41,432 nucleotides of DNA from a virus. The stretch lies in the UHGV virus genome UHGV-1461890. One strand, given 5' to 3'. The first letter of the stretch is position 1; the number at the start of each line of letters is the position of its first letter. The notes under the pieces were generated by a model. The model saw only the letters and a list, made by a program, of their open reading frames with translations. It had not been told where the DNA came from and made no database searches. Shown here piece after piece: positions 1-41,432 of this stretch. The position numbers were made by a program, and so were the translations under genes.

Positions 1-47
1 CTGGCGATGGCTCTGGCTCTGGCGATGGCTCTGGCTCTGGCGATGGC
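1..47 (+). repeat. 18-bp coding tandem repeat (GGCGATGGCTCTGGCTCT)n at window start, encoding GDGSGS units
   Basis: About 2.5 exact copies of an 18-bp unit sit in frame with the downstream ORF. The same unit family occurs at the window end (41376-41432), and the last 18 nt of the window equal nt 1-18. Confidence 0.8.
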
Positions 48-518
48 ATAAAAGCCATAAATGGCGATACTATCTATCAAATAGACGGCATTGCAACAAT
101 TATAAAACAGGTTAGAAATAACATAGCAAAAGGTTATATTTTCAACGATGATTTATCCTTAACACCTTGCTACATAGTAAAAGGACATAACAAATTTGCT
201 CACGGCGAAACAATCAAAAAGGCTATGGAAGATTTAGAGAATAAAATCTTTGAAGATATGGACACCGATGAAGCGATAGAAATGTTCTTGAAAGAGTTTT
301 CTGACCTTGATAAAAAATATCCAGCTAAAGCATTTTATGTTTGGCACAACCGATTAACAGGCTCCTGTGAAATGGGAAGAAACTTATTCGTAAGGAATGG
401 CGGTTATGACCTTGAAAACGATACCTTCACCGTCAGGGAGTTCATTGAAATAACCAAAAATTCCTTCGGTGCCGACGTCATTAGGCAGTTGGCAGAGAGG
501 ATAGGTGATACCGAATGA
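3..518 (+). CDS. C-terminal portion of a protein with a Gly-Ser-Asp-Tyr low-complexity linker; 5' end lies beyond the window start or across a circular junction
   Basis: The frame is open from nt 3 with no stop codon, through GDGSGS repeats into the 225..518 ORF listed in the track. The stop at 516-518 overlaps the next start (ATGA). Confidence 0.55.
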   Translation, partial: GDGSGSGDGSGSGDGIKAINGDTIYQIDGIATIIKQVRNNIAKGYIFNDDLSLTPCYIVKGHNKFAHGETIKKAMEDLENKIFEDMDTDEAIEMFLKEFSDLDKKYPAKAFYVWHNRLTGSCEMGRNLFVRNGGYDLENDTFTVREFIEITKNSFGADVIRQLAERIGDTE

Positions 519-805
519 ACGAGCAAATTGATATATTCGGTAACGAAATATCAGCAACCGAACTTGCAAAGCAATTTCAAGAAACAGAACAAAAACATCG
601 AAGAAGATATAAACCTATGCAAGAATTATACGGCTTAACGCAAGGTAAAACTTGCAAGACTTGTAAGCATTGTTTGAAAATTAACTACCATTGCAAAACC
701 TATTATAAATGCGACTTATGGTTTATTAGCAATAGTGAAGCAACGGATATAAGGCTTAAAAATAATGCTTGTGGAAAATACGAAAGTGAGAGTGATACCG
801 AATGA
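515..805 (+). CDS. small Cys-rich hypothetical protein with a zinc-finger-like C-x2-C...C-x2-C pattern
   Basis: 96-aa ORF with start/stop overlaps to both neighbours; contains a CKTCKHC...C..C cysteine cluster. Confidence 0.5.
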   Translation: MNEQIDIFGNEISATELAKQFQETEQKHRRRYKPMQELYGLTQGKTCKTCKHCLKINYHCKTYYKCDLWFISNSEATDIRLKNNACGKYESESDTE

Positions 806-1200
806 CCGATAGAGATAGGCTGATAGAGTTATTAGAAGATACATTACACGAATGGGAATGTGATGTACAAACTGAAACATTATCGCAAATTGCAGAACAC
901 CTTATTGCAAACGGGGTTATAGTACCGCCTTGTAAGGTGGGGGATACGGTGTATATCAAAAATAGACCGCTGATAATCTCGTTTTTACATATTGAAAATG
1001 AAGTGTATTATGTTGTTCAGTTTGATTGTGATGACTGTGGCGATTGTCCTTTTTATGAGGACGAAGTTTCTTTCGAGGGTGAACACGATTGTATAACTAA
1101 TGGATATATACAATTTACTGAAAAAGATATAGGCAAAACCGTATTCCTCACCAAAGAGGAAGCAGAAGAAAAGTTAAAGGAGTTGAAAAATAATGGCTGA
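802..1200 (+). CDS. hypothetical early protein (CDDCGDC cysteine cluster)
   Basis: 132-aa ORF whose start overlaps the upstream stop (ATGA); acidic, with a Cys cluster. Confidence 0.5.
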   Translation: MTDRDRLIELLEDTLHEWECDVQTETLSQIAEHLIANGVIVPPCKVGDTVYIKNRPLIISFLHIENEVYYVVQFDCDDCGDCPFYEDEVSFEGEHDCITNGYIQFTEKDIGKTVFLTKEEAEEKLKELKNNG

Positions 1201-1486
1201 ATACATAAAAAGAATGTCTGCAATGACAATTTGCGAAAGGTATAGCCAACATTGTTTTGAAACAAACGATAACAGAGGACAAGATATTGCCGACAGAATT
1301 TTTGATGAAATTACGGAAATTCCTACCGCAGATGTGGTTGAGGTTGTAAGGTGTAAGGATTGCAGGCATTGGGGCGATATTGCATACGGATTTATTTGTC
1401 GCAAATTTAGTGGAATTGATACAAAGATATGTATGGGTACAGACCAATTTTGCAGTTATGGTGAGTTAAAGGAGCGTGAGGGGTAA
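1193..1486 (+). CDS. hypothetical early protein (CKDCRHW...C cysteine motif)
   Basis: 97-aa ORF overlapping its neighbours, with RBS AAGGAG upstream. Confidence 0.5.
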   Translation: MAEYIKRMSAMTICERYSQHCFETNDNRGQDIADRIFDEITEIPTADVVEVVRCKDCRHWGDIAYGFICRKFSGIDTKICMGTDQFCSYGELKEREG

Positions 1487-1683
1487 TGAATTGTAAGCAT
1501 TGTGGTAGTGATGTAGGATTTTATACCAAAATAAAAGGTATTCAATATTATAACGAAAATGCGGAACCGCAAGGGTGCGATGTATCAACGGAAAATTATT
1601 CTGTATATTGTCAAGAGTGCAACAAAAGAGTTTGTAATATTACAGAGTTTTTCAAAAAAGGAAGTGAGCAAAATGCCCAATAA
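1486..1683 (+). CDS. small zinc-ribbon-like protein
   Basis: 65-aa ORF with two C-x2-C pairs (CKHCGS ... CQECNKRVC). Confidence 0.45.
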   Translation: MNCKHCGSDVGFYTKIKGIQYYNENAEPQGCDVSTENYSVYCQECNKRVCNITEFFKKGSEQNAQ

Positions 1684-2137
1684 ACTAACCGATAGCGAGA
1701 TTGTAAAGGCTATGGAGATATTTGTTAATAGCGTAGGTAAAGGTTTTGTTTTTGCTAATGTTGATATAAAAAAAGACGAAATAAACGAGTTTAAACATAT
1801 CGACTTGTCTTATGATGAAATTTTTGACCTAATCAACCGCCTACAAGCAAAGAACTCAAATTTGACTTCTGATTTAACTTCTTTACAAAACGATTTAACT
1901 TCTTTGCAAAATGATTTGACTTCTTTAAAGGCAGAGAATGAGAGGTTGAAAAAGTCAAATGAAATGTTTACCGATATCGGCAAAATGTATAGTGAAATCA
2001 AAGCCGAAGCATACAAAGATATATTAAACTTCTTGGAATGCAGGTTTGTTTGTAAAGGAAAATTAACTGCTTTTGGATATGAGTCAGCAATAATAGATAT
2101 TAAAAATCACTTAAAAGAATTGGTGGGTGAGGAGTAA
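1673..2137 (+). CDS. hypothetical coiled-coil protein with three DLTSLQN heptad repeats
   Basis: ATG at 1673 preceded by AAAAGGAAGTGAG. The track's longer 1559 start overlaps the upstream gene. The ORF contains a 21-bp tandem repeat. Confidence 0.5.
   Translation: MPNKLTDSEIVKAMEIFVNSVGKGFVFANVDIKKDEINEFKHIDLSYDEIFDLINRLQAKNSNLTSDLTSLQNDLTSLQNDLTSLKAENERLKKSNEMFTDIGKMYSEIKAEAYKDILNFLECRFVCKGKLTAFGYESAIIDIKNHLKELVGEE
1862..1930 (+). repeat. 21-bp tandem repeat x3 (GATTTAACTTCTTTRCAAAAY) inside the 1673..2137 CDS
   Basis: Three near-identical 21-bp units encode LTSLQND heptads. Confidence 0.8.
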
Positions 2138-2343
2138 TGCAATATTATGTGATAAAGGACAAAAACACAGGCTTATATTTTCGTGGTAAAGGTGTAAATC
2201 GTTGGGGGAAACATCTTAATCAAGCAAGTATATATCGTGTGAAAGGAATGGCAGAGCATACCCTTAAAGAACTATCTTGGCGAGGGGAACAAGGGGTTAT
2301 AGTGCATATAAAAGTCATAGAATTGGTGGGTGAGGATAAATGA
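2137..2343 (+). CDS. hypothetical protein
   Basis: 68-aa ORF with start overlapping the upstream stop (TAATG) and RBS GGTGGGTGAGGAG. Confidence 0.4.
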   Translation: MQYYVIKDKNTGLYFRGKGVNRWGKHLNQASIYRVKGMAEHTLKELSWRGEQGVIVHIKVIELVGEDK

Positions 2344-2660
2344 AAGCACACTACGCTAAAATTAACAAAACCGAGCCAAACGCAGCACAACGCAAAGTCT
2401 TACGGAATGAGGTGGTAAAAGAGTTTGATACCTTGCTTGAAAATTTTAACCACGATGTAATGGTGCAGATGTTATATTTGTTTCATTTTAAATATGGCTA
2501 CGGTCAAAAGAGATTGAAGCAGTTAAACAAGGATATTGCAGAAGCTCTTGACGGACTTAACGCAAGGTATGAATTATCAGTAAACGATACCGCTTGGTTA
2601 TGTGAGAAGAAACTCAAAGAAGATGGTATTGATGTAGACGAACTTTTTAAGGAGGTTTAA
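2340..2660 (+). CDS. hypothetical protein
   Basis: 106-aa ORF with ATGA overlap and RBS GGTGGGTGAGGA. Confidence 0.45.
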   Translation: MKAHYAKINKTEPNAAQRKVLRNEVVKEFDTLLENFNHDVMVQMLYLFHFKYGYGQKRLKQLNKDIAEALDGLNARYELSVNDTAWLCEKKLKEDGIDVDELFKEV

Positions 2661-2662
2661 AA

Positions 2663-2899
2663 ATGGCAAAGCACAATACTTCAGCTTATATCGAATGTCC
2701 TTTTCATCATTGGTACGATGGTTGCAAATTGTGCTGTGAAGGAGTAAAAAAAGACTCTGCCATACATTTAGCTTTTTCCTCTCCTGATGAAAGGCGGCAA
2801 TATATGAAAGATGTTTGTTATAAAAACTATAGGCGATGTATTATTGCTCAGGCTTTATATAATAAACATAATAATATAAATATAAATAATAAAGGGTAA
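2663..2899 (+). CDS. small Cys-rich hypothetical protein (CPFHHWYDGCKLCCEG)
   Basis: 78-aa ORF with RBS AAGGAGG 7 nt upstream. Confidence 0.45.
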   Translation: MAKHNTSAYIECPFHHWYDGCKLCCEGVKKDSAIHLAFSSPDERRQYMKDVCYKNYRRCIIAQALYNKHNNININNKG

Positions 2900-2905
2900 T
2901 ATGCT

Positions 2906-3289
2906 ATGTATTATTATAATAATAAAAATAAATATAATAACAGTAAGGTAACCTTTAACGGTGAGGCCTATGATAGTCGCAAAGAGGCCAAAAGACATCA
3001 GGAACTTTTATTGCTGCAAAGAGCAGGAGAAATTAAAGACCTTCAAAGACAGGTTAAGTTTGAACTTATTCCTACCCAGCGAGAGCCTGATACCATCGGT
3101 AAGCGAGGCGGTGTACATAAGGGTAAAGTGATAGAAAATAATGTTAATTATATTGCTGACTTTGTGTATACCGATTGTCGCTCAGGTGAAAAAGTGGTTG
3201 AGGATAGCAAAGGTATGAAAACTGAAAAATATATAATAAAGCGCAAACTTATGCTTTATATTCATGGCATCAGAATATTAGAAACATAG
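2906..3289 (+). CDS. DUF1064-like phage protein
   Basis: 127 aa. The pattern F.G..YDS..EA.R...L..L.....I..L..Q..F.L...........Y.ADF.Y......VVED.KG..T..Y..K.KL resembles the DUF1064 family common upstream of terminase genes. Recalled from memory, not searched. Confidence 0.45.
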   Translation: MYYYNNKNKYNNSKVTFNGEAYDSRKEAKRHQELLLLQRAGEIKDLQRQVKFELIPTQREPDTIGKRGGVHKGKVIENNVNYIADFVYTDCRSGEKVVEDSKGMKTEKYIIKRKLMLYIHGIRILET

Positions 3290-3293
3290 AGAT

Positions 3294-3320
3294 AGGAGGC
3301 TGAAAAGCCTTCTATTTTTT
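3294..3320 (+). terminator. rho-independent terminator-like hairpin after the early gene cluster
   Basis: AGGAGGCT-GAAA-AGCCTTCT stem-loop followed by ATTTTTTAT. Confidence 0.5.
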
Positions 3321-3397
3321 ATGCAGGTAGGGGGGGTTTAGGATTTCATAACCTGTGTATTAAAATATGCGTATAGCAAAGAAGGAAGGAGTTTTCT

Positions 3398-4021
3398 GTG
3401 GATTGGGATTGGAAAAAAGTAAAGTCAGAATATATCACATCAGAAAAGTCAAGCTACAGAAAGCTTGCAGAAAAATATGATATACCACTTGGCACTCTTC
3501 AAAAGAGAGCTAAAAAAGAAAATTGGCCCGACCTCAAAAAACAAAGTGGTGACAGAACGGTTGCAAAAACCATAACAGTCATTGAGAAAAAACAAGTCGA
3601 TAAATTCAAGAGAATTCAAGATATTGCCGACAAGTTGCTCGATAAAATTGAAAAGGCTGTTGATGAGCTTGATATTCATCTTGCAAAGAAAACAATAAAG
3701 ACAAAAGAGATTGAGTATCACAATTATGAAAGACCTGACAAGCCAACGAAGGAAACCATAAACGAAACCGAGGAAATAATTGACTATCACTCTATTATAG
3801 ACCGAAAAGGTGTACAGGAACTTGCTGCCGCAATTAAGAATCTCAAAGAGGTTCAAATGCTTAAATCAGAACTTGATGAAAAAGAGCAAGAGGCACGAAT
3901 TGCTAAGCTCCAAAGGGATGCTGAGATTAACAATAACGATGACAATAAACCTCATGGAGTGGTACTTATGCCTCCTATAATGGACGACTTAACGCCACCG
4001 AAGGAGGAGACAGATGAATAA
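3398..4021 (+). CDS. terS: terminase small subunit
   Basis: GTG start with RBS GAAGGAAGGAG. The N-terminal HTH-like SYRKLAEKYDIPLGTLQKRAKKENW is typical of small terminase subunits. It sits immediately upstream of, and overlaps, the large terminase gene. Confidence 0.7.
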   Translation: MDWDWKKVKSEYITSEKSSYRKLAEKYDIPLGTLQKRAKKENWPDLKKQSGDRTVAKTITVIEKKQVDKFKRIQDIADKLLDKIEKAVDELDIHLAKKTIKTKEIEYHNYERPDKPTKETINETEEIIDYHSIIDRKGVQELAAAIKNLKEVQMLKSELDEKEQEARIAKLQRDAEINNNDDNKPHGVVLMPPIMDDLTPPKEETDE

Positions 4022-5480
4022 CGTTATTTGGTCACCTCAGCCAAGGCAGTTAGAGTTTATGATGCGCCCTGAAAACGAAGCCTTATATGGTGGAGCTGCC
4101 GGTGGTGGTAAATCTGATGCTTTGGTGATTGAAGCCACAAGGCAAGTACACATACCTCATTACAAGGCATTGATACTTCGTAAGACATATCCTCAGTTGA
4201 CCGAACTGATTGAAAAGTCATTAAGATATTATCCATTGGCATTTCCAAAAGCACGATACAATGCATCTGAACACACATGGTACTTCCCAAGTGGCGCAAA
4301 GATAGTATTTGGCTCAATGCAGCATAGCAAGGATAAATTAAACTATCAAGGAAAAGCGTATGATTTCGTCGCATTTGACGAATTAACGCATTTTACCTAT
4401 GAGGAATATATATATCTTTCTTCTCGTAACAGAGCAAATGGGCCGGGGACAAGGGTGTATATGAGAGCAACCGCTAACCCCGGTGGTATCGGACATGGTT
4501 GGGTTAAGGAAAGATTTATAACTGCTGCCGAGCCTATGACTACCATTTGGGAATCAGTTAAGGTTGAACACGAAGGCAAAGTTGAAGAGAGACACCGTTC
4601 GAGAATATTTGTTCCCTCTTCTGTGTTTGATAACAAGATACTTCTTGAGAATGACCCTGATTATCTAACAAGACTTGCATCTATGCCCGAAGCTGAAAGA
4701 AAAGCCTTACTCTATGGTGATTGGGATAGTTACTCAGGACAGTATTTTGCCGAATGGAGAGATAAACCCGAACATTATGACGATAGACAATGGACTCATG
4801 TTATCAATCCATTTAAGATACCTGACCATTGGAAGATATATCGCTCATTTGACTGGGGTTATAACAAACCATTCTCATGTGGTTGGTGGGCCATAGATAC
4901 AGATGGTGTTGCCTACCGTATCCTTGAGTTATATGGATGTACTCAGACCGCTAACGAAGGTCTTAAATGGACAGCAAAGCAGGTATTTGAAGAGATACAT
5001 CGTATAGAGACCGAACACGAATGGCTTAAAGGCAAACGCATTAACGGAGTAGCCGACCCTGCTATATTCTCTGCCGATGGTGGTGAATCAATAGCAGAAT
5101 CAGCTCAAAAGTGCAGAGTTTACTTTACACCGGGTGACCATCAGCGAATACCGGGATGGATGCAGATGCATTATAGGTTAGCATTTGATGAGAATGGATA
5201 CCCGATGATGTATATATTCAAAAACTGCAAAGCATTTATAAGAACGGTACCTACATTGATATACGATGACCACAAGGTAGAGGACCTCAATACAGAGGGT
5301 GAGGACCATATTGCTGACGAAACAAGGTACTTCTGTATGAGTAGACCAATTAAACCGAGGAATGCAAACAAGCCTGATGATTATACAGGCAAGAATCCTC
5401 TCAACATATTCCTTGATATACCTAAAGAGGATATTAAAACAGTTTCTCGTAGACCAACAATAATAATTAACGGAGGATAG
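4014..5480 (+). CDS. terL: terminase large subunit
   Basis: 488 aa with Walker A LYGGAAGGGKSDA near the N-terminus and a C-terminal nuclease-like region with acidic residues. Position between TerS and portal fits the call. Confidence 0.9.
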   Translation: MNNVIWSPQPRQLEFMMRPENEALYGGAAGGGKSDALVIEATRQVHIPHYKALILRKTYPQLTELIEKSLRYYPLAFPKARYNASEHTWYFPSGAKIVFGSMQHSKDKLNYQGKAYDFVAFDELTHFTYEEYIYLSSRNRANGPGTRVYMRATANPGGIGHGWVKERFITAAEPMTTIWESVKVEHEGKVEERHRSRIFVPSSVFDNKILLENDPDYLTRLASMPEAERKALLYGDWDSYSGQYFAEWRDKPEHYDDRQWTHVINPFKIPDHWKIYRSFDWGYNKPFSCGWWAIDTDGVAYRILELYGCTQTANEGLKWTAKQVFEEIHRIETEHEWLKGKRINGVADPAIFSADGGESIAESAQKCRVYFTPGDHQRIPGWMQMHYRLAFDENGYPMMYIFKNCKAFIRTVPTLIYDDHKVEDLNTEGEDHIADETRYFCMSRPIKPRNANKPDDYTGKNPLNIFLDIPKEDIKTVSRRPTIIINGG

Positions 5481-5481
5481 T

Positions 5482-7485
5482 ATGGCTTTATTTAATCGTA
5501 AAAATAAAGGCGAAGAGGCACAGAAGCAGCCTACCAATGAAGAGCAAATGCTCCTGAGACAGTCTGCACCTCAGCCTACTGCCGAAGAAGAGGCTATGAG
5601 GCTAAGGCAAGGCAAGGCTCCTGATGGGAGTATAGATGGCCTTAAAGCACTTGCTCAGGTGATTGGTAGGGAACAGGTACAAAAGGCATATCAGACTCTT
5701 CTCAAGTACAAGGAAGGCAAAGCCAACCTAGAAAAGAGAATAGTTGAGAATGAACAATGGTACAAGCTCAGGCATTGGGAGTGTATGAGAAAGCAAGAGA
5801 GTGAGGTACAGCCTGTATCAGCTTGGTTATTTAACAGTATAGCCAACAAACACGCTGATGCTATGGATAACTTCCCATCACCTAATGTGCTTCCTCGTGA
5901 AGAAGGAGACAAGGCTGAAGCTGAAATGCTTACCTCTATCCTTCCTGTAGTTCTCGACCAGAACGAGTTTGAGCAGACCTATAGTGATGTATGGGATTAC
6001 AAGCTCAAGACAGGTACAGGCGTATATGGTGTCTTTTGGGATAGTTCTAAGCTTAATGGTCTTGGTGATATAGCAATCAAGAAGATTGACCTTATAAATC
6101 TATTCTGGGAGTCAGGCATTACTGATATCCAAAGGTCACGAAACATATTCCATGTAGAACTTGCAGACAATGACATTCTTGTTCAGACATATCCCCAACT
6201 TGCAGGTAAACTTGGAACATCAACCTTAGACCTTAGCAAGTATGTATATGACGATACCGTTGATACCACCGACAAATCGGCTGTTATAGATTGGTACTAC
6301 AAAAAGAATCAGAATGGTAAAAATGTTCTTCATTATTGCAAGTTCGTAAACGATGAGGTACTATTCGCTACCGAAAACGAGCCAAACTTCACCGAAAGAG
6401 GCTGGTATGACCATGGCGAGTATCCGTTTGTATTTGACGTGTTGTTCTCGGTTGCAGGTACTCCTGCCGGATTTGGTTATATAGACGTTGGCAAGGATGC
6501 TCAAGCATACATAGACCGAGGTAGTCAGGCAATTATGAAAAATATGTTAGCCAATGCAGCACCTCGTCACTTTGTCCGTCAGGATGGTGGTGTAAATGAG
6601 GACGAATACACCGACCTCAGCAAAGATTTAGTTCATGTAGATGGCAACCTTGGTCAAGACAGCATTATGGCTATTCAGGGTAAGCCTCTCAGCAATATCT
6701 ATTTGCAGATATTGCATGACAAGATAGATGAACTGAAGGAAACCACAGGAAACCGAGATGTATCTAACGGTGGTACAACATCAGGTGCTACTGCCGCTTC
6801 TGCCATAGCAGCTATGCAAGAGGCAGGCTCTAAGTTATCTAGAGATGCTAATAAATCTGCATATCGTTCATTCAGGAAGCTTTGCCTATTGTCTATTGAG
6901 CTTATCAGACAGTTCTATGACCTACCAAGATGCTTCAGAATCATGGGTGAGAATGGCACAGCAAGATATGTTCAGTATAGCAATGCAGGGATAGCTCCTC
7001 AATCTCAGGGCACAGAGTTTGGTACTGATATGGGATTCAGGATTCCCCTGTTTGATATAGAGGTTACTGCTCAAAAGCAATCACCTTACTCAAAGATGTC
7101 GCAAAATGAACTTGCTTTGCAGTTCTTCGGAGCAGGCTTTTTTAATCCTCAGATAGCAGACCAAGCACTCGCCTGTCTTGACATGATGGACTTTGACAGA
7201 AAAGAGTTCATTATGCAAAAGATTGCTCAAAATGGCGGTATGTATCAGCAGATGATGGCTATGCAGCAACAGATGATAATGTTAGCAAAAATGGTAGACC
7301 AAGCAAGAGGAAGCAATATAGCCGAACAGTTAATGGCTCAATTCTCAGGACAGGCACCTGTACAAGCTATTGATGGTAATGCTCCTAATGTATCGGATAA
7401 AGAGGCATTGGGTGGTGATGGTGGAGAAGCCTCCACAACCAAGAAGGCAAGACAGCGAGTGGTTGAGTCTACTGACCCGACATAG
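5482..7485 (+). CDS. portal protein
   Basis: 667-aa ORF directly after terL with RBS GGAGGA. Call rests on size, position and a Gln/Met-rich C-terminal tail; similarity is not verified. Confidence 0.7.
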   Translation: MALFNRKNKGEEAQKQPTNEEQMLLRQSAPQPTAEEEAMRLRQGKAPDGSIDGLKALAQVIGREQVQKAYQTLLKYKEGKANLEKRIVENEQWYKLRHWECMRKQESEVQPVSAWLFNSIANKHADAMDNFPSPNVLPREEGDKAEAEMLTSILPVVLDQNEFEQTYSDVWDYKLKTGTGVYGVFWDSSKLNGLGDIAIKKIDLINLFWESGITDIQRSRNIFHVELADNDILVQTYPQLAGKLGTSTLDLSKYVYDDTVDTTDKSAVIDWYYKKNQNGKNVLHYCKFVNDEVLFATENEPNFTERGWYDHGEYPFVFDVLFSVAGTPAGFGYIDVGKDAQAYIDRGSQAIMKNMLANAAPRHFVRQDGGVNEDEYTDLSKDLVHVDGNLGQDSIMAIQGKPLSNIYLQILHDKIDELKETTGNRDVSNGGTTSGATAASAIAAMQEAGSKLSRDANKSAYRSFRKLCLLSIELIRQFYDLPRCFRIMGENGTARYVQYSNAGIAPQSQGTEFGTDMGFRIPLFDIEVTAQKQSPYSKMSQNELALQFFGAGFFNPQIADQALACLDMMDFDRKEFIMQKIAQNGGMYQQMMAMQQQMIMLAKMVDQARGSNIAEQLMAQFSGQAPVQAIDGNAPNVSDKEALGGDGGEASTTKKARQRVVESTDPT

Positions 7486-15916: not shown

Positions 15917-18900
15917 ATGGGAGCTAAAGATGTATATGAGCAGTTAAAACGAGAAAAACAACAAGGCAATTCTAAAGCCAAAAAAGTCTACGCTCAAATG
16001 ATGCAATCTAAAATAATAGATGAATTCAATTCTCTTATAAAGCATAATTCGGACTTTTACAATAAAACCAAGTCTCGTTTTTATGACGAAGATGACAACT
16101 TTATAGACATCTATCGTTCTGATTCAGAAGATTGGAAAAACACAGCGGTTTCCATGTCAAGTTCTGCTAGAGAAAAGTCTACAAATATAAGAAGTTTGCT
16201 GGATGAATATGGTTCGTATTATGATGCGGATACTGTATCGAGTATGTTAAAAACCCTTGATGAGCATGAAAAATTCTCTACTGACATTGTAAAACAAGCG
16301 GTAGAACAACATGACTATTTTTCCGAGTATAAAGACGAGAATGACTACAACCAAAAGGTTGTTATACCTAAAAATCAAAATGAAGAGTGGGCCTCAGCCA
16401 ATACTGAGGCTCTGAAAACTGAGATTGGCAACCTTGAAACATCTTATAAGGCATATTCAGAACTTAAATCAAAGAGAAATTTAAGAAGTTCTCAGCTTAT
16501 ATCCAACTATATAAAGTCAGGTTATACGAGAGATGAGGCAGTAAAATTAGCCGCTAAAGACAAGGATATTATCGAATACGATAAAAAGTTATCTGTTTAT
16601 GGAGATATGAGTAATGCTGAAAAATCTCTCTCCGAAAAGAAGCAGTTTTACAACAATGCCACTCGTGTTCAGGAAGGCTTATCTTTAAGCGGAATAACTG
16701 ACCCTTCATCCAAGCACTATGACCCAAATTATCTCAAGTATTCAGCAAAAGGTGAGGCTATGGGTGATGAGAAAAACGGTGGTTTTTTTACACCTGATAC
16801 TCAGCGCAAAAACCAAGTGGCTTACCTCCGTAACAATCCCGATATGTTGGAACTGTATGAAGAAACTGCCAACGATGCTAATGGCGCATCATGGGGAACT
16901 TCCGAAAGAATATTACTAGACCAAATTGAATATAAAGCCGCTAAGTATATGACAGATGAAGAGTTTTTAATTTACAATGCCTACTTAGGCAAGGGAGACA
17001 AAGAATCGGCTGATAAATATTTGGAGAGTATAGAGGAGACTTTAACCTCTCGTCAGGGTGCGGCGATTTCTGAACAGCAAGATACTTGGCTTAAAAAACA
17101 ATTATTTAGCGTTTATGCAGGACTCGACCAATGGGAACAAGGCATTATCAGTTTAGGTAACACCGAAGGAAAATATGACTCCCCTACAGGCGTACAGTTT
17201 GCCTCAGGCACAATAAGAGAAGACTTGGGTGCAATCGGTCAAGGTGCTTATGACTTAGGCGTTACTACAGGAAACATGCTCCCATCCATTTTGGTTTCAT
17301 ATCTCACAAGTGGTGTTGGTGGTGCAGTAGGTTTAGGCGCAAAGGCAGCAGGAACACTAGGCAAAGTAGCCGGTGCCGCAACCTTGGGAAGCTCGGCAGC
17401 AGGTAATGGTTATCAGGAAATGCTCAACCTTGGCTATGATAAGAGTCAGGCACAGGCTTATGGCACTCTTGTAGGCCTTTCCGAAGCAGGTCTTGAGTAT
17501 GTATTGGGTGGTATTTCATCCCTTGGTGGTACGGTTTCAGGTGGCATAACTGACAAGGTCGTTACTAAGTTAGTTTCTAACATGGATAAGGCTATCGCTA
17601 AGGTAGCCATTGGCGCAGGTGGTAAACTTGTAGGTAGTATGGTATCTGAATTTGGAGAAGAATACCTGCAAGAAGTATTAGACCCGGTATTTAAAAACAT
17701 AACGCTTAACACCGATGAGGATATAAGGTTATTCTCCTCCGAGGCTCTTTATGCAGGTATACTAGGTGCATTGTCAGCAGGTTTGCTTGAGGGTGGTTCG
17801 AGTATATCAGGTGAGGTTGCAACCTATAAAGCAGGTAAGGATGTTAAGAACACAGGTCAGTTAAGTAACCTTAAAAAGTTCGGCACATCATTTTCTGCTG
17901 ATACCGTTGCATATAAGATTGCAAGTCAGGTTGATGAGAACACCGATGCTTATACCATAGGTCAGCTGCTACATGAAGTGGGCGCAGATAGTTTATCTGA
18001 AGCAAATATAGCTGACATAGTAAAATCTCTTGAGAGGAAAAACATATCTCCCGAACACGCTCAAACCATTGCTGAGTGGTTAAACGCTTCTGTTCAAGGT
18101 GAGGTATTTAATCCTCTTCAGCGATTAGCTTTAAAAAATCCTGATATAGCACAAACCTTTAAGGATGTTATTATAAACCAGAACTCTACAGTAAATCAAA
18201 GGATGCAGAGTTATACCGACATCCTTCAAAATATCGCCAATGAAAAGGAAATTATAAAGGCTAACAAAAGCAAAGCAAAGGCTGAGAAGAAAGCTAATAA
18301 AACCAAAACAACCGAAGAAACAAAAACTACACCTTTTGTTCCTTTGTCTAATGAAGCAATTACTGCTTCTAAGATAGAATCACTAGCAAAAGAACTTGAA
18401 AGCGAAGGTGTATCACCTGAATTGGCTCAGGTTATGGCTCAGAGGAAGGTTTCTGAATCTTCAGAGGGTAAATCTGTTGCCGATACTGAAAATGCTATAG
18501 AGAACAAATTTGAAACCAATTTAGATGGACAAACACTCAACACAAAAACAGGTGATAGTGTTAATGTGTCTGAAATAGCCTCTATAAAAGATGGCAAAAT
18601 GACCTTAAAACTTGACAATGGTGAAACTGTAGATGCAGACGATATTAGTTTTGGTACTGAAGATGAGGGTTTAATCTATTCGACAGTATTAGACATGGGT
18701 GTTAATGCCGCTGTAGCAAACTCTCTTGTAAAAAATTACAGTCCATCGGACAAGCTCTCAGCAAGACAATATGCTCTTGGCATTAAAGAGGCATATAAGT
18801 ATGGCTCTTATGGTATGCCTATAAACGAAATATCTAAAAACGGTTTTGCCGCTGATTTAAGTGAGGCTCAGAGGACTCATGCCTATAACCTTGGCAAATC

Positions 18901-27337: not shown

Positions 27338-29203
27338 ATGAATTATGCAGTATATAATATTGCTCTTGACATACATAAGACAGGCTCTCAGGTAGCCTTG
27401 CCTATGATAAGAGGCGAGAACAAAAGAAAAATAGTTATCTCTCTTACCGAAAATGGTAGGCCATATAAAATAGCAAGTGGCTGCACAGCAAAGTTTGCAG
27501 CCTTTAAGCCTGACGGAAAACCTATTTATAACGATTGTGTTGTAGATATAGAAAACAATCTCATAATTTACACCATTACTTCTCAGACAACAGCAGTTAT
27601 GGGTGAAGTAAAGTGCCAAATTGAACTTATTGGAACTGATGACGGTTTACTCTTCTCCCCTACATTCAGCCTTATAGTTGCAGATAAATTATATAACCAA
27701 GAGCCTATATTAGCCTCATCCGAGGAGTTTAATGCTCTTACTGCCTATGTTGCTGACCTTCAGAAAAAACTTGATAATGGCGAGTTTAAAGGTGATAAGG
27801 GTGACAAGGGAGATAGGGGAGACCGAGGACCTCAAGGTGTTCAGGGTGATACAGGTCCTGCCGGTAAAGATGCAGACTCCTCTTCCCTATCTCCATCTAT
27901 TATATGTACCGAAAAGGGAACTGCAATTACTATTTCGGATAGTTCTGAGTCGGGATTTGAGGCTTTTAGCATATATGGAAGGTCCACTCAGAATGGAACA
28001 CCGACACCTTCGGCACCTGTAAACATTGCCTCGGTTGGTGATGATGGAAAGATTATTGCCGGTGTACAAGACAAAACTAATATATTTGATACTGTGTTCA
28101 CAAGCGGTGGCATTACTCAAGATACAGGAAAAGAATTCGTTGATACTACATTACAACGAACGGATTATATTTCCGTTAAGGAAGGGTCTATCTATAAAAT
28201 ATCAGGGTTAGGTGGCCCGGTCAGAATATTCTGTTACAATGCAAACAAAGTGTTTTTGTCCTCAATTTATGGAACGACAGGCGAATGGTTTGTTGTTCCA
28301 ACATCATGTGCTTTTATTAGATTTCATATAGTAATAGCTAATTACAACAAAGACTTGAAGGTAAATCGAATTAATGCAATAACCTTAGAAAATCGTGTGT
28401 TAAGAGCCATCCCTGTCACCGACTCAAGCCTCGCTACATACACCGATACTAACGGTCAAATGTGGTGCGCTGATGAGATAGACTTTGAGAGAGGAGTTTA
28501 TATTCAAAGATGCTATACTGAAACTATATCAATGACGTATGAAGAAGCAAATAACCGATATATAGGGGAAATAAGTAAAAATGCCAACTCGAAAATATCA
28601 AATAGCATTGGGATAATTGTTCTTACCGATAAATTGCCTTATAACGAGAATGCAGGAAAGATAGACGAAGCAGTGAATGGTGTGCGTGTATCTTACGGAA
28701 ACAAAAAAGCGGTAATTGCTTACTTTAATGACGAGGTCATATCTTCGCTCAATATTCTCTATCCGTTAGAGATATCAATCGAAACACCTTTAACCTCAGA
28801 ACAAATTGCAGCATACAAGGCCCTGAAGACAAATTACCCATCTACAACCATATTAAATGATGAAAATGCATTTATGAAGGTGGGATATAGAGCTGATACT
28901 AAGAAGTTTATAGAGAAAATGTCAGGCTCGACTACTCAGATTTCTTCCGTTACTCTTGCTGCTTCAAAATGGGTAGGCACAGCAAGTCCATATTCTCAGG
29001 TTGTGACAGTTCCGGGTGCTACTAAAAACAGCAAGATAGACCTTAACCCTTCCGTTGCTCAGCTTGGTATCTTCCATAATAAAGATATTTCCTTTGTGGT
29101 TGAAAATGATGACGGAGTAATAACGGTATATTGCATAGGTCAGAAACCTACAAACGATTACACAATACAAGCCACAATTACGGAGGTGTATGTAAATGGC
29201 TAA
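27338..29203 (+). CDS. tail fibre / receptor-binding protein with BppU-like N-terminus and short collagen-like G-X-Y repeat
   Basis: ATG at 27338 with RBS GGAGGG at 7-nt spacing. GDKGDKGDRGDRGPQGVQGDTGPAG lies at nt ~27791-27868, followed by a beta-rich C-terminal region. Confidence 0.65.
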   Translation: MNYAVYNIALDIHKTGSQVALPMIRGENKRKIVISLTENGRPYKIASGCTAKFAAFKPDGKPIYNDCVVDIENNLIIYTITSQTTAVMGEVKCQIELIGTDDGLLFSPTFSLIVADKLYNQEPILASSEEFNALTAYVADLQKKLDNGEFKGDKGDKGDRGDRGPQGVQGDTGPAGKDADSSSLSPSIICTEKGTAITISDSSESGFEAFSIYGRSTQNGTPTPSAPVNIASVGDDGKIIAGVQDKTNIFDTVFTSGGITQDTGKEFVDTTLQRTDYISVKEGSIYKISGLGGPVRIFCYNANKVFLSSIYGTTGEWFVVPTSCAFIRFHIVIANYNKDLKVNRINAITLENRVLRAIPVTDSSLATYTDTNGQMWCADEIDFERGVYIQRCYTETISMTYEEANNRYIGEISKNANSKISNSIGIIVLTDKLPYNENAGKIDEAVNGVRVSYGNKKAVIAYFNDEVISSLNILYPLEISIETPLTSEQIAAYKALKTNYPSTTILNDENAFMKVGYRADTKKFIEKMSGSTTQISSVTLAASKWVGTASPYSQVVTVPGATKNSKIDLNPSVAQLGIFHNKDISFVVENDDGVITVYCIGQKPTNDYTIQATITEVYVNG

Positions 29204-32110: not shown

Positions 32111-33607
32111 CTAAATATCGTGAAAATAAATAGCTAAATTGCCTTTAGCCTTTTCAAATACAACCTTTTCAATTATTGTGCGTAACGCTTCATTCTTAGC
32201 CCGAGGTGTTACATCTTCCCTTTTTATGAACTCAAGTATGCCTACAACCTTTTCAGAGAAGGCATCTATGTCAATATCCTTAACTATGACCTTATCCCTA
32301 TCCTGCTTTAATTTCTCAATCTTAGTGGTTATTTCAGCCTTATTATTACCATACTGTTCAATGGTATCAATTTCGGCAAGGTAAGCCTCCTTTGCTCTTT
32401 CAAGCCTTCTTTCCTCTAAGGCTATGAGCTTATCATAGTCTATGGTAGGCTTTTCAGTTTGCTTAGGTGCTTTGGGTGTGATGTTAAATTGTTGGCTTCC
32501 TATGGCCTGTTCTAAACCTTTAATAAAGGCGCTTTCTAATTTAATCATACTGATAGAGTGAGATGTGTGACAAGAGCCTCTTGAATAGTTGCAACATTGT
32601 AAGGAGTGTGTTTTTTTCTTTGCAGCAAGATTCCTTGTTCCGTTATAAGCAAGTGTCGCTCCACAAGCACTACATCTAACAAGCCCTTTAAGGATATAAT
32701 CAATAGGTTGCTGCCTCCGAGCATGTTTAGAATACAACAATTTCATAGTTTGCAATCTTTCCTGAACCTTATCCCACAGTTCCATTGATATAAGTGGTTG
32801 CCAATTACCATCAATAATTTGGATGTTTTCATTGAGATAATCCCTTTTACTTACTACCTTTGAACCATCAGGTGTCCATCTGATTTTACCTATATAAGCA
32901 GGATTCCATAAAATATACTCTATCCACCTATTATCAGGTATATTACCTCTTTTGGTACGAACTCCTCTCTGCCCGAGCGAAATTGTAATTTCTCTCATAC
33001 CTTCACCATCAGCAAACCTTTGAAATATTTCTTTGATAACATCGGCAGCACCGCTTTCTACATCGGGAAGATAGGTTTTATCACCATTTATGTATCCAAA
33101 AGGAGCAAATACAGCAGGCTCTCCTCTGCTTACCTTTTCTTCCATGCCTCTTGATACTTCAGCGCCGAGGTTGATAAGGTAAAATTCATCCATCCATTCT
33201 ATAATTCTCTCCATGAGGCTTCCAAAAGGACCTTCAGGTATAGGCTCTGATACAGATTTAACCGATATGCCTATCTTTTGAAGCAAGTTTTTATATACTA
33301 TACTTTGCTCTTGGTTTCTTGCAAAACGAGATAACTTCCACACATATATAATATCAAAGGGATGATTTTTCTCCTTTGCCATGGCTATCATCAAGTTAAA
33401 GTTATCTCTTTTCTTTACGCTCTTTCCTGAGATACCATCATCATAAAATACATACTCATCAGGGATTAAATAACCTTCCCTTGCTGCAAATTCTCTGATT
33501 TTTTTGAGCTGAGAATCAGGACTGTATTCATCTTGCCTTTCATCCGATACACGAACATAGGCAGCTCCTATTTTTAATAATTCGTTTTCCACTTTATCAC
33601 TCCTCAT
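32111..33607 (-). CDS. int: large serine recombinase (integrase)
   Basis: 498 aa. The N-terminal resolvase catalytic domain carries the YVRVSDERQ serine motif. A recombinase domain, a zinc-ribbon C-x2-C...C motif and a C-terminal coiled coil follow. Confidence 0.9.
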   Translation of the reverse strand: MRSDKVENELLKIGAAYVRVSDERQDEYSPDSQLKKIREFAAREGYLIPDEYVFYDDGISGKSVKKRDNFNLMIAMAKEKNHPFDIIYVWKLSRFARNQEQSIVYKNLLQKIGISVKSVSEPIPEGPFGSLMERIIEWMDEFYLINLGAEVSRGMEEKVSRGEPAVFAPFGYINGDKTYLPDVESGAADVIKEIFQRFADGEGMREITISLGQRGVRTKRGNIPDNRWIEYILWNPAYIGKIRWTPDGSKVVSKRDYLNENIQIIDGNWQPLISMELWDKVQERLQTMKLLYSKHARRQQPIDYILKGLVRCSACGATLAYNGTRNLAAKKKTHSLQCCNYSRGSCHTSHSISMIKLESAFIKGLEQAIGSQQFNITPKAPKQTEKPTIDYDKLIALEERRLERAKEAYLAEIDTIEQYGNNKAEITTKIEKLKQDRDKVIVKDIDIDAFSEKVVGILEFIKREDVTPRAKNEALRTIIEKVVFEKAKGNLAIYFHDI

Positions 33608-40199: not shown

Positions 40200-40267
40200 A
40201 TACTTTAGGTGGGAAATGTTAGATAAACCACTTCAATATAAAATTATGTTTTAAAGGAGGCTGAGTG

Positions 40268-41014
40268 ATGGCAAACAAAAGAATGTTTTCAATGGACATA
40301 GCAGATAGTGATGCTTTTTTAGAGATGCCGCTATCTTCTCAGGCTTTATATTTTCATCTTTCGATGAGAGCAGATGACGATGGGTTTGTAAAGAATCCAA
40401 AGAAAACACAAAGGATAATAGGCGCTTCCGATGATGATTTAAAGATACTTATAGCGAAGAGATTTATTCTTCCTTTTGATTCAGGAATCGTAGTTATAAA
40501 GCATTGGAAAATCAATAATACCATTCGTTCTGACCGATACAAACCAACCACATATATTGAAGAAAAATCAATGCTGGTTGTTAAAGAAAACGGTGCCTAT
40601 ACGGAGGCTAAAAATCTTGGTATACCAAGTGGTATACCAAATGACAACCAAGTGGGTGACAGTTGGTTACCACAGTATAGTATAGGTAAGAGTAGTATAG
40701 ATTTAGGTAAGTATAGTTGTAGTTGTAGTAGCGAAAATGACAACCACAACAACAGCGACTTTCCCACAAAAAATGATGAGTTTTCCACCGACTTATCCAC
40801 CAATAGCCAATTTGAACTGCAAAACGGAAGTCTCGGAAGAGGTGTTGTTCTTCTCACACCTGAGCAGGATGAGGCTCTACTAGATAAGTTAGGCTTCGAT
40901 GGATACAACCACTATGTATCTAAACTTGCTGACTTCATTATTGAGAAGGAAGCAAAGGTAGGTAACCATTATGCAACCATACTCAAGTGGGCAAGAGAGG
41001 ATTCTAAACTTTAA
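40268..41014 (+). CDS. phage replisome organizer (Phage_rep_org_N-like N-terminal domain)
   Basis: ATG at 40268 after AGGAGG. The N-terminal block MFSMDIADSDAFLEMPLSSQALYFHLSMRADDDGFVKNPKK...IVVIKHWKINN matches the replisome-organizer N-domain pattern. A low-complexity linker carries DNA repeats. Confidence 0.7.
   Translation: MANKRMFSMDIADSDAFLEMPLSSQALYFHLSMRADDDGFVKNPKKTQRIIGASDDDLKILIAKRFILPFDSGIVVIKHWKINNTIRSDRYKPTTYIEEKSMLVVKENGAYTEAKNLGIPSGIPNDNQVGDSWLPQYSIGKSSIDLGKYSCSCSSENDNHNNSDFPTKNDEFSTDLSTNSQFELQNGSLGRGVVLLTPEQDEALLDKLGFDGYNHYVSKLADFIIEKEAKVGNHYATILKWAREDSKL
40621..40735. repeat. cluster of short direct repeats (CCAAGTGG x2, TAGGTAAG x2, AGTATAG x3, TTGTAG x2) inside the replisome-organizer gene; candidate origin iterons
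   Basis: Repeats seen in the sequence. They coincide with the low-complexity protein linker, as is typical for an ori embedded in a rep gene. Confidence 0.45.
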
Positions 41015-41064: not shown

Positions 41065-41352
41065 ATGTTAAACAAGAAAGTAATTATCAGAGCAGACAGA
41101 GCAGGAGTTTTCTTTGGAACACTCAAAAAGAAAAACGGCACAGAAGTAACCCTTAGCGATTGTCGCAGATTATGGTATTGGGATGGTGCTGCAAGTTTAT
41201 CACAGTTAGCGGTTGATGGAACTAATAACCCAAGAGAGTGTAAATTCACCGTAACTGTACCCGAAATAATCATAACAGGTGTGATTGAAATTATCCCTTG
41301 CACAGATAAGGCGATTGAATCTATTGAGGGTGTAAAGGAATGGAAAAGATAA
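41065..41352 (+). CDS. hypothetical protein
   Basis: 95 aa with RBS AAGGAGAAAA. Confidence 0.45.
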   Translation: MLNKKVIIRADRAGVFFGTLKKKNGTEVTLSDCRRLWYWDGAASLSQLAVDGTNNPRECKFTVTVPEIIITGVIEIIPCTDKAIESIEGVKEWKR

Positions 41353-41432
41353 AAGAATTTTTAAAAATTGAACTTGGCTCTGGCTCTGGCTATGGCTCTG
41401 GCTCTGGCGATGGCTCTGGCTATGGCTATGGC
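41340..41432 (+). CDS. N-terminal part of a Gly-Ser-Tyr/Asp repeat protein (MEKIKEFLKIELGSGSGYGSGSGDG...), open to the window end
   Basis: ATG at 41340 overlaps the upstream stop (ATGGAAAAGATAA). The frame stays open through 18-bp repeat units to the last base and is in frame with the ORF at the window start once the 18-nt terminal overlap is applied. Confidence 0.5.
   Translation, partial: MEKIKEFLKIELGSGSGYGSGSGDGSGYGYG
41376..41432 (+). repeat. 18-bp coding tandem repeat variants (GGCTCTGGCTCTGGCKAT / GGCTCTGGCTAT) at the window end
   Basis: Same repeat family as nt 1-47; nt 41404-41421 are identical to nt 1-18. Confidence 0.8.

Follow-up and report, generated by a model that had tools for sequence, protein, structure and literature searches.

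The Ser-Asp (R/SD) regions of the staphylococcal Clf/Sdr proteins are dipeptide repeats with a periodicity of 6/18 nucleotides (nt), which are polymorphic in copy number, have evolved by slippage and act as a spacer that tolerates differences in length. Prion-like domains of the FUS type are low-complexity 'sticker-spacer' regions of the form [G/S]Y[G/S], and silk fibroin is a (Gly-X)n protein with GAGAGS and GAGAGY repeats. In this study I describe a repeat that resembles each of these in some respects. It is found in the virus genome UHGV-1461890, a stretch of 41,432 nt that is called the window throughout, and it is an in-frame coding hexanucleotide array of the form (GGC-KMY)n, in which Gly alternates with Ser, Tyr or Asp. 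The array lies at both ends of the window, in a gene that is divided between them and is referred to here as the split gene. The best full explanation, to which I assign a probability of roughly 0.85, is that the window is a complete temperate-phage genome of ~41.4 kb that was linearised within this array.

Like the Clf/Sdr regions, the phage array has a period of 6/18 nt and a copy number that is polymorphic between near-identical genomes. In contrast to them, it is part of a cytoplasmic early protein without signal peptide or LPXTG motif, so that the role of a wall-spanning stalk is impossible; furthermore, Gly alternates with Ser, an aromatic or an acidic residue, and the flanks are a helix of 12 amino acids (aa) and an uncharacterised domain of 156 aa. 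With the FUS-type domains it shares the richness in G and S, a predicted disorder and spaced aromatic residues, of which the class (Y, F, W) is conserved but the sequence is not. It differs from them in being strongly acidic, in lacking Gln, Asn and Arg and in its strict two-residue periodicity, and the low number of charged residues that marks prion-like domains is not seen, as Asp takes ~22% of the positions that alternate with Gly (the X positions). In silk, too, Gly strictly alternates with residues that are small or aromatic, Ser and Tyr among them, whereas the phage array is nearly without Ala, its abundant Asp would oppose the stacking of beta-sheets, and AlphaFold2 (AF2) predicts disorder.

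A homologue of the C-terminal domain of the split gene (28% identity, E 7e-7) is present in the 'ribonuclease inhibitor' of the Riemerella phages CRP5 and CRP6 (WCS66356 / WIL01335), which also shares the early replication and recombination neighbourhood. The CRP5 homologue (L003 / OQ268095.1) likewise crosses the start of its circular GenBank record, at 46497..527. Unlike in the split gene, the N-terminal part of the CRP5/CRP6 protein is a BspA-type leucine-rich repeat (PF13306) instead of a Gly-X array, and the label 'ribonuclease inhibitor' probably reflects this repeat and is uninformative on the shared domain. The two open reading frames (ORFs) directly upstream of the CRP5 homologue are without Pfam match at E <= 0.01, and the DUF6948 gene that precedes the split gene in the window was not detected there.

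One gene across the two ends of the window

At the right end of the window, an ORF starts with the ATG at 41340 and passes into GGC-TCT/TAT/GAT repeats from 41376 on. After 31 whole codons it reaches 41432 without a stop, and the last base closes a codon. All Gly codons at 41376..41432 are GGC. The left end lies within the same repeat family, and frame 3, starting from nt 3, continues the split gene through the array and a non-repetitive region to the TGA at 516-518. These observations confirm what an earlier, sequence-only reading of the window had described for both ends. Tandem Repeats Finder (TRF) detects arrays of period 6/18 at 1-47 and 41375-41432, and with a period of 18 it finds 2.6 perfect copies of an 18-nt unit (100% match) at 1-47. 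A Shine-Dalgarno-like GAGG is located at 41326-41329, upstream of the ATG, and the end of the DUF6948 gene, with its stop, has 13 nt in common with the beginning of the split gene, as read from the sequence. The coordinates of these features and of their neighbours are listed in Table 1.

Table 1. The two parts of the split gene and the genes on either side of it, in coordinates of the window
Feature	Coordinates	Strand	Basis or remark
DUF6948 gene, 95 aa	41065..41352	+	Pfam PF22253, E 5.7e-29; conserved upstream partner
5' end of the split gene: ATG + 12 codons, MEKIKEFLKIEL	41340..41375	+	conserved N-terminal amphipathic helix
5' part of the array: 19 codons, GSGSGYGSGSGDGSGYGYG	41376..41432	+	TRF period 6/18; codon list
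3' part of the array: nt 1-2 = codon positions 2-3, then 15 codons, GDGSGSGDGSGSGDG	1..47	+	frame analysis
C-terminal domain of the split gene: 156 aa + TGA	48..518	+	AF2 model, conservation
Small downstream gene, 96 aa	515..805	+	start codon shares bases with the preceding TGA (ATGA)

The claim of the sequence-only reading that a single gene spans the ends is borne out by its homologues. A search of 5.8 billion proteins at E <= 1e-5 returned more than 3,600 homologues of 141-258 aa which carry the N-terminal helix, a (G-S/Y/D)n array and the C-terminal domain as one ORF, and a full HMMER scan gave 846 cluster representatives of the family, which comprises at least 846 clusters at 50% identity. 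Against the phages in GenBank, tblastn found two human-gut phage contigs with a single-ORF homologue, in which the G-S/Y/D array measures 12-20 aa; in both, the gene directly follows a homologue of the gene at 41065-41352. For closer analysis I used 68 loci from IMG/VR, GTDB genomes and GenBank in which no contig end cuts the ORF. All 68 stay in frame through the array, and an in-frame [ILVM][KRE]xF[LI] motif precedes the array in at least 63, the other five having close variants or a different N-terminus. In all 12 relatives that were checked for gene order, a DUF6948 gene is located directly upstream of the gene with the C-terminal domain. In the closest genome relative (L103), with a C-terminal domain that is 88% identical, the gene is intact and its array measures 88 aa. 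The single-ORF homologues, together with the constant position of the DUF6948 gene, indicate that the last and the first gene of the window adjoin in the real molecule.

One family member of 206 aa (P0230) shows the G-S/Y/D array after the domain rather than before it, which may be due to a gene call running round the junction of a circular contig.

The gene content of the window fits a complete phage. The packaging and virion genes comprise a possible small terminase, the large terminase, a P22-type portal, a major head protein and an internal virion protein, followed by tail proteins, a polyvalent protein of 3,782 aa and a BppU-like baseplate protein. Lysis and lysogeny are represented by an amidase, a repressor and a serine integrase (32111-33607, minus strand). 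Among the early genes are a RecE-like exonuclease, RecT, a winged-helix protein, a single-stranded DNA-binding protein (SSB), a C5 methyltransferase and a DnaD-like loader, as well as DUF6948, the split gene, small ORFs and a DUF1064 resolvase. No bacterial-looking genes were found at the window ends, and the integration module is internal. With a full set of phage genes, no host flanks, and a gene order that is continuous across the ends through the DUF6948 pair, the earlier proposal of a circular or circularly permuted phage, linearised within a linker resembling a variable-number tandem repeat (VNTR), is supported.

Alternatively, the two repeat blocks could belong to different genes, or the window could be an integrated prophage with unrelated DNA beyond its ends; the only point in favour of this is that the contig is linear and has no exact terminal repeat. 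Since the homologues are single ORFs with a conserved upstream synteny, while host genes are seen at neither end and the integrase and repressor module lies inside the window at 32.1-34.9 kb, I consider this extremely improbable.

How the two ends are to be joined is a separate matter, and here the sequence-only reading fared less well. It had described an overlap of 18 nt at the termini which preserves the reading frame. The identity of 41404-41421 with nt 1-18 is true, but it is not terminal, as another 11 bases (41422-41432, ATGGCTATGGC) follow, two of which mismatch the corresponding bases of nt 19-29. The suffix and the prefix of the window overlap exactly by no more than 1 nt, and an exact direct terminal repeat is therefore absent from the window ends. 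The two end arrays have 20 pairs of 18-mers in common, the longest stretch found in both being 30 nt (41392-41421 = 7-36), and when arrays of the same size were simulated from the three units of the family, at least one common 18-mer was observed in 79% of the trials. As evidence for a join, the 18-nt identity is neither terminal, nor unique, nor beyond chance, and that specific join is unjustified.

A plain head-to-tail abutment of the ends is out of frame (...GYGYG-LAMALALAMA-stop), the translation ending after LAMALALAMALALAMA. As the abutment breaks the frame, either 3n+1 bases are missing from the junction or the ends form an imperfect overlap of 3n+2 (17, 29 or 47 nt, with 2-3 mismatches). 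The shortest consistent repair is the addition of one T, which results in an array of 35 residues. Should the ends truly overlap, by 18 nt or by 29 or 47 nt with errors, the genome would be slightly shorter and the array only ~25 aa long. In line with this, the overlaps of 17, 29 and 47 nt all keep the frame in spite of their mismatches, arrays as short as 10-24 aa exist in some relatives, and a comparable near-overlap of 19 nt with 1 mismatch is found between the ends of another contig (3300045988_131586, see below). However, exact overlap nowhere exceeds 1 nt, every candidate overlap mismatches at bases that define S, Y or D, the sharing of 18-mers is frequent by chance in the simulations above, and the array of the nearest relative is much longer, at 88 aa. 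An array that short with unique flanks is also normally assembled through. I therefore regard such a short-overlap join as improbable, and in the preferred reading at least 1 nt of the array (3n+1) is absent between the ends.

The array as breakpoint and as fast-changing DNA

The sequence-only reading had suggested that the assembler could not resolve the repeat, and comparison with other contigs supports this. Among the 80 best relatives in IMG/VR, a contig end cuts the locus in 25 (31%), and 22 of these 25 begin directly in the array; by a rough estimate that was not computed, presumably less than one of such contigs of ~35 kb would end there by chance. An ENA contig from an independent MEGAHIT assembly (L005, ERZ27229672:k119_288479) shows zero mismatches to window positions 9-6805, over 6,797 bases read, and ends 39 nt into the array. 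Its length of 31,060 bp would correspond to ~31 kb of the window. A configuration like that of the window is observed in the IMG/VR contig 3300045988_131586 (41,146 bp), one end of which consists of the N-terminal helix and 118 nt of array, while the other holds array and C-terminal domain, with the near-overlap already mentioned. A search of IMG/VR for exact DNA matches to the N-terminal flank gave zero matches, and exact-protein look-ups with DUF6948, SSB and RecT did not find a contig that bridges the junction; the structural half alone is on record, in the ENA contig k119_288479. In the proposed course of events, an assembler unable to traverse the array would leave a linear contig, with the gene split between its ends. 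For the window itself, the array length or coexisting alleles would be the cause of the break.

A further IMG/VR contig of 62 kb (3300045988_055717) has the array at its start (L051), followed by one allele of the C-terminal domain, and ~43 kb further on (L099:4364-4930) an intact gene with the usual N-terminus and array and a clearly different allele of the C-terminal domain. Two phages may have recombined within the array here, or the contig may be a chimeric assembly that was joined there.

The length of the array ranges from 10 to 94 aa, with a median of 54, in the 55 IMG/VR loci with an uncut ORF. In ten groups of genomes the flanks are 97-100% identical over 1.3 kb, and the array differs in seven of these groups, all data being short-read assemblies. 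Within near-identical groups, arrays of 10/66/86 aa, 16/22/58/72 aa and 30/38/50/72 aa are found, also with differences in the order of the units, while the arrays of L019 and L021, and those of L056 and L064, differ by clean block indels.

The codons within the array point in the same direction. In the window array, GGC makes up 18 of 18 Gly codons, compared with a genome-wide share of 26%, and TCT makes up 9 of 9 Ser codons, compared with 27%; over the whole family, 94% of the Gly codons in arrays are GGC and 98% of the Ser codons TCY. Within a given array, Gly is always encoded by the same codon and the X codons share their third base, which is all-T or all-C regardless of the GC content of the genome, and the lineage types GGC-NNC, GGC-NNT and GGT-NNC can be discerned. 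The idea that GGC is constrained in all arrays was dismissed, as GGT is used throughout the array in L014 and L016. Codons that are uniform within an array and different between lineages indicate concerted evolution by slippage or unequal exchange rather than a constraint at the codon level. Slippage or unequal recombination in a 6-nt register would continually rebuild the array, and slippage is accordingly proposed, from these patterns in the sequences, as the likely generator of its variation. The array further shows what is expected of a coding VNTR, with a unit that is a multiple of 3 within an ORF, polymorphism in copy number and homogenisation within the array.

It is possible, though I find it unlikely, that the hypervariability is largely an artefact of assembly, and that long and stable arrays were given arbitrary or collapsed paths by the short-read assemblers. 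All compared sequences are short-read metagenome assemblies, almost a third of the contigs (the 31% given above) break at the array, and the 62-kb contig, which joins one N-terminus to a different allele of the C-terminal domain, is a possible chimera. On the other hand, identical arrays were recovered from independent samples (L014 = L015 = L113, L022 = L024 and L048 = L053), the block indels between L019 and L021 and between L056 and L064 are clean, and the frame is kept in every uncut ORF. The first of these sets of identical arrays is the one degenerate type, a GGT array of ~68 aa in which X includes S, M, H, C, I, E and Y, whereas pure arrays differ between near-identical phages. Impure repeats slip less, and the stability of this array is thus what slippage predicts, whereas its identity across independent assemblies indicates that assemblers are able to reproduce arrays faithfully.

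The reading of the window as a complete genome that was opened within a hypervariable coding array is nevertheless weakened by several points. Contigs alone were read, and the break could be caused by heterogeneity of the population, low coverage or repeat length. Mis-assembly of arrays that are longer than the short reads could be the source of part of the hypervariability. Circular permutation and headful packaging are deduced from the type of portal and terminase alone. Finally, a docking of the N-terminal helix onto the C-terminal domain is suggested only by the predicted local distance difference test (pLDDT) scores of the AF2 models.

Residue classes and the proposed role of the protein

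The composition of the arrays is far more constant than their length. Gly accounts for 50% of the residues, Ser for 19%, Tyr for 16% and Asp for 11%. At ~94% of the positions that alternate with Gly, X is S, Y or D, while every residue that lies a single mutation away from these (A, F, C, N, H and others) makes up less than 1%; Asp is found at about 22-24% of the X positions and Ala at 5 of ~1,780. The array at L039:3764-4000 consists of S/W/E (TCG/TGG/GAG), with G as third base, which would turn a Tyr-like codon into a stop. Another array (L033:1-100) consists of S/F/D, and a third (L114:743-1108) of N/Y/H/D, encoded by NAT codons. In remote members from the HMMER scan, Gly-rich, aromatic and acidic low-complexity N-termini of up to ~370 aa are observed. 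As lineages with changed codons keep the Ser, aromatic and acidic classes, the composition appears to matter, and length and order do not. At the level of the compared sequences it is thus shown that the residue alternating with Gly is held as Ser, aromatic or acidic by selection on the protein.

This bears on the question whether the repeat acts at the level of the nucleic acid, instead of or besides the protein, as a guide-RNA array of the VIPR type or as iterons like those in lambda O. VIPR arrays are non-coding and consist of 9-16 pentanucleotide units that are followed by a structured 3' tail, with a RAMP-like vipr gene next to them, and the VIPR vrRNAs are phage-encoded GGY/NN tandem repeats (bioRxiv 10.64898/2026.04.26.720920). 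The array of the split gene is likewise a phage-encoded tandem repeat with an invariant GGY and a variable dinucleotide, hypervariable between related elements, and it lies in a replication module. The period is, however, 6 nt and not 5, runs of at least 5 YNNGG units occur on neither strand of the window, and the dinucleotide is nearly always TC, TA or GA (~94% of the units, equal to Ser, Tyr and Asp codons) instead of a free NN. The conserved N-terminal motif, the array and the C-terminal domain always share one reading frame, the 3' flank of the array being the conserved coding sequence of the domain, and variant lineages keep the class of the amino acid and not the bases (S/W/E, with third base G). 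The model of the C-terminal domain shows no structural match resembling RAMP or RRM, the neighbouring DUF6948 and small ORFs being unmodelled. With iterons, phages of one lineage should agree in the number and sequence of the repeats, whereas both vary here among near-identical phages; moreover, the array is GC-rich, and AT-rich repeats at 40618-40729 are a better candidate for an origin. A role at the nucleic-acid level is on these grounds very improbable, and a VIPR vrRNA array in particular was rejected for a repeat that is hexanucleotide, in frame, limited to three dinucleotides and under selection at the amino-acid level.

A target of a diversity-generating retroelement is not supported either. 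The hallmarks of such a target, a reverse transcriptase and a template copy of the variable repeat, were not found, the only GGY-NNN arrays of the window being its two ends, and a reverse transcriptase domain was not found in the ORFs scanned, which did not include every small ORF.

The sequence-only reading had proposed a protein with a short N-terminal helix, a flexible linker and a C-terminal domain of ~170 aa. This order is retained, but the folded C-terminal part measures ~156 aa (nt 48-515). In the AF2 model of this domain, with a mean pLDDT of 90, a 5-strand beta meander is followed by 6 helices, and a Cys before FAHG and a TGSCxxGR motif are invariant in the family. In the N-terminal helix, M1, E2, K3, I4, F7 and L8 are at least 90% conserved (alignment A4). 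The AF2 model of a full-length homologue places a helix at residues 2-8 in an N-terminal block with a pLDDT of 80, and the pLDDT falls below 50 in the array, which is hence predicted to be disordered.

Searches for a known function returned little. In Pfam, PHROG, NCBIfam and PADLOC no family was found for the C-terminal domain, weak matches being confined to the low-complexity part, and a sequence search of the PDB matched artificial GS linkers alone, without a solved structural relative of the domain. The matches in BFVD are uncharacterised phage homologues only, one of which is named 'Lamprin'; this name probably stems from the low-complexity repeat, the source of the annotation being unchecked. 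A literature search on DUF6948 and on the repeat strings yielded nothing relevant.

Based on these features, the disordered array would be the tether between the globular domain and the conserved amphipathic helix at the N-terminus (IKxFL). The acidic and aromatic Gly-rich segment could be a flexible tether that tolerates differences in length, or a weakly multivalent 'sticker-spacer' region, and the product of the split gene could be an early module for protein-protein interaction, with DUF6948 as a translationally coupled partner, acting near the programme of replication and recombination. This role of an early interaction module is proposed with low certainty.

A more far-reaching possibility is that the array is a selected and self-renewing hypermutable 'contingency' module, in which slippage tunes a multivalent interaction during an arms race. 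New lengths and new patterns of aromatic and acidic residues could then lead to the formation of condensates, or to the capture or mimicry of a factor from the host or from a rival phage, with the N-terminal helix and the C-terminal domain as fixed anchors. I regard this as rather doubtful.

Other features of the genome and significance

The small gene downstream of the split gene is, judged from the ATGA overlap, in the same early operon; its protein and the gene order are identical in the ENA contig L005. The AT-rich tandem repeats at 40618-40729, with periods of 12, 21 and 6, lie inside the gene of the DnaD-like helicase loader (40265-41014), and this plausible candidate origin of replication would then be embedded in the initiator gene. 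A tandem repeat of 21 nt in 2.7 copies, GATTTAACTTCTTTACAAAAC, is found at 1871-1927 inside a small early ORF (1559-2137). The ORF at 15917-27265 on the plus strand, which encodes the 3,782-aa protein of the tail and ejection module, contains an ART-PolyVal ADP-ribosyltransferase domain at aa 2188-2354 (E 1.8e-21) and, judged from this match, seems to be a very large virion protein of the 'polyvalent' kind. The BppU-like baseplate protein (27317-29203, plus strand) has a weakly collagen-like Gly-X-Y stretch at aa 159-184, the second Gly-periodic repeat of this genome.

A megablast search with 25 kb of the window against the phages in GenBank gave zero matches. The closest relatives, of which L103 is the best, sit in metagenome-assembled genomes (MAGs) of Acutalibacteraceae, Ruminococcus and other Clostridia, and the Acutalibacteraceae and Ruminococcus (Clostridia) are, from the MAGs of these relatives, the probable hosts.

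For the assembly of such phages, the consequence is that one short coding repeat systematically truncates assemblies in a large group of gut Clostridia phages. Complete genomes are left without the exact terminal repeat that is used to call a contig circular or complete, and the array splits one gene into two apparent fragments and may seed chimeric joins. Once the locus is recognised, such contigs can be closed and their completeness can be scored anew. The assembly phenomenon itself is ordinary, and the noteworthy part is a widespread early gene with a coding repeat that evolves fast and is selected for composition. Its product is a very widespread, uncharacterised early phage protein, with a fold for which there is no solved relative and a disordered segment that combines a very fast turnover of the DNA with a conserved composition in residue classes, which is unusual enough to merit experiments.

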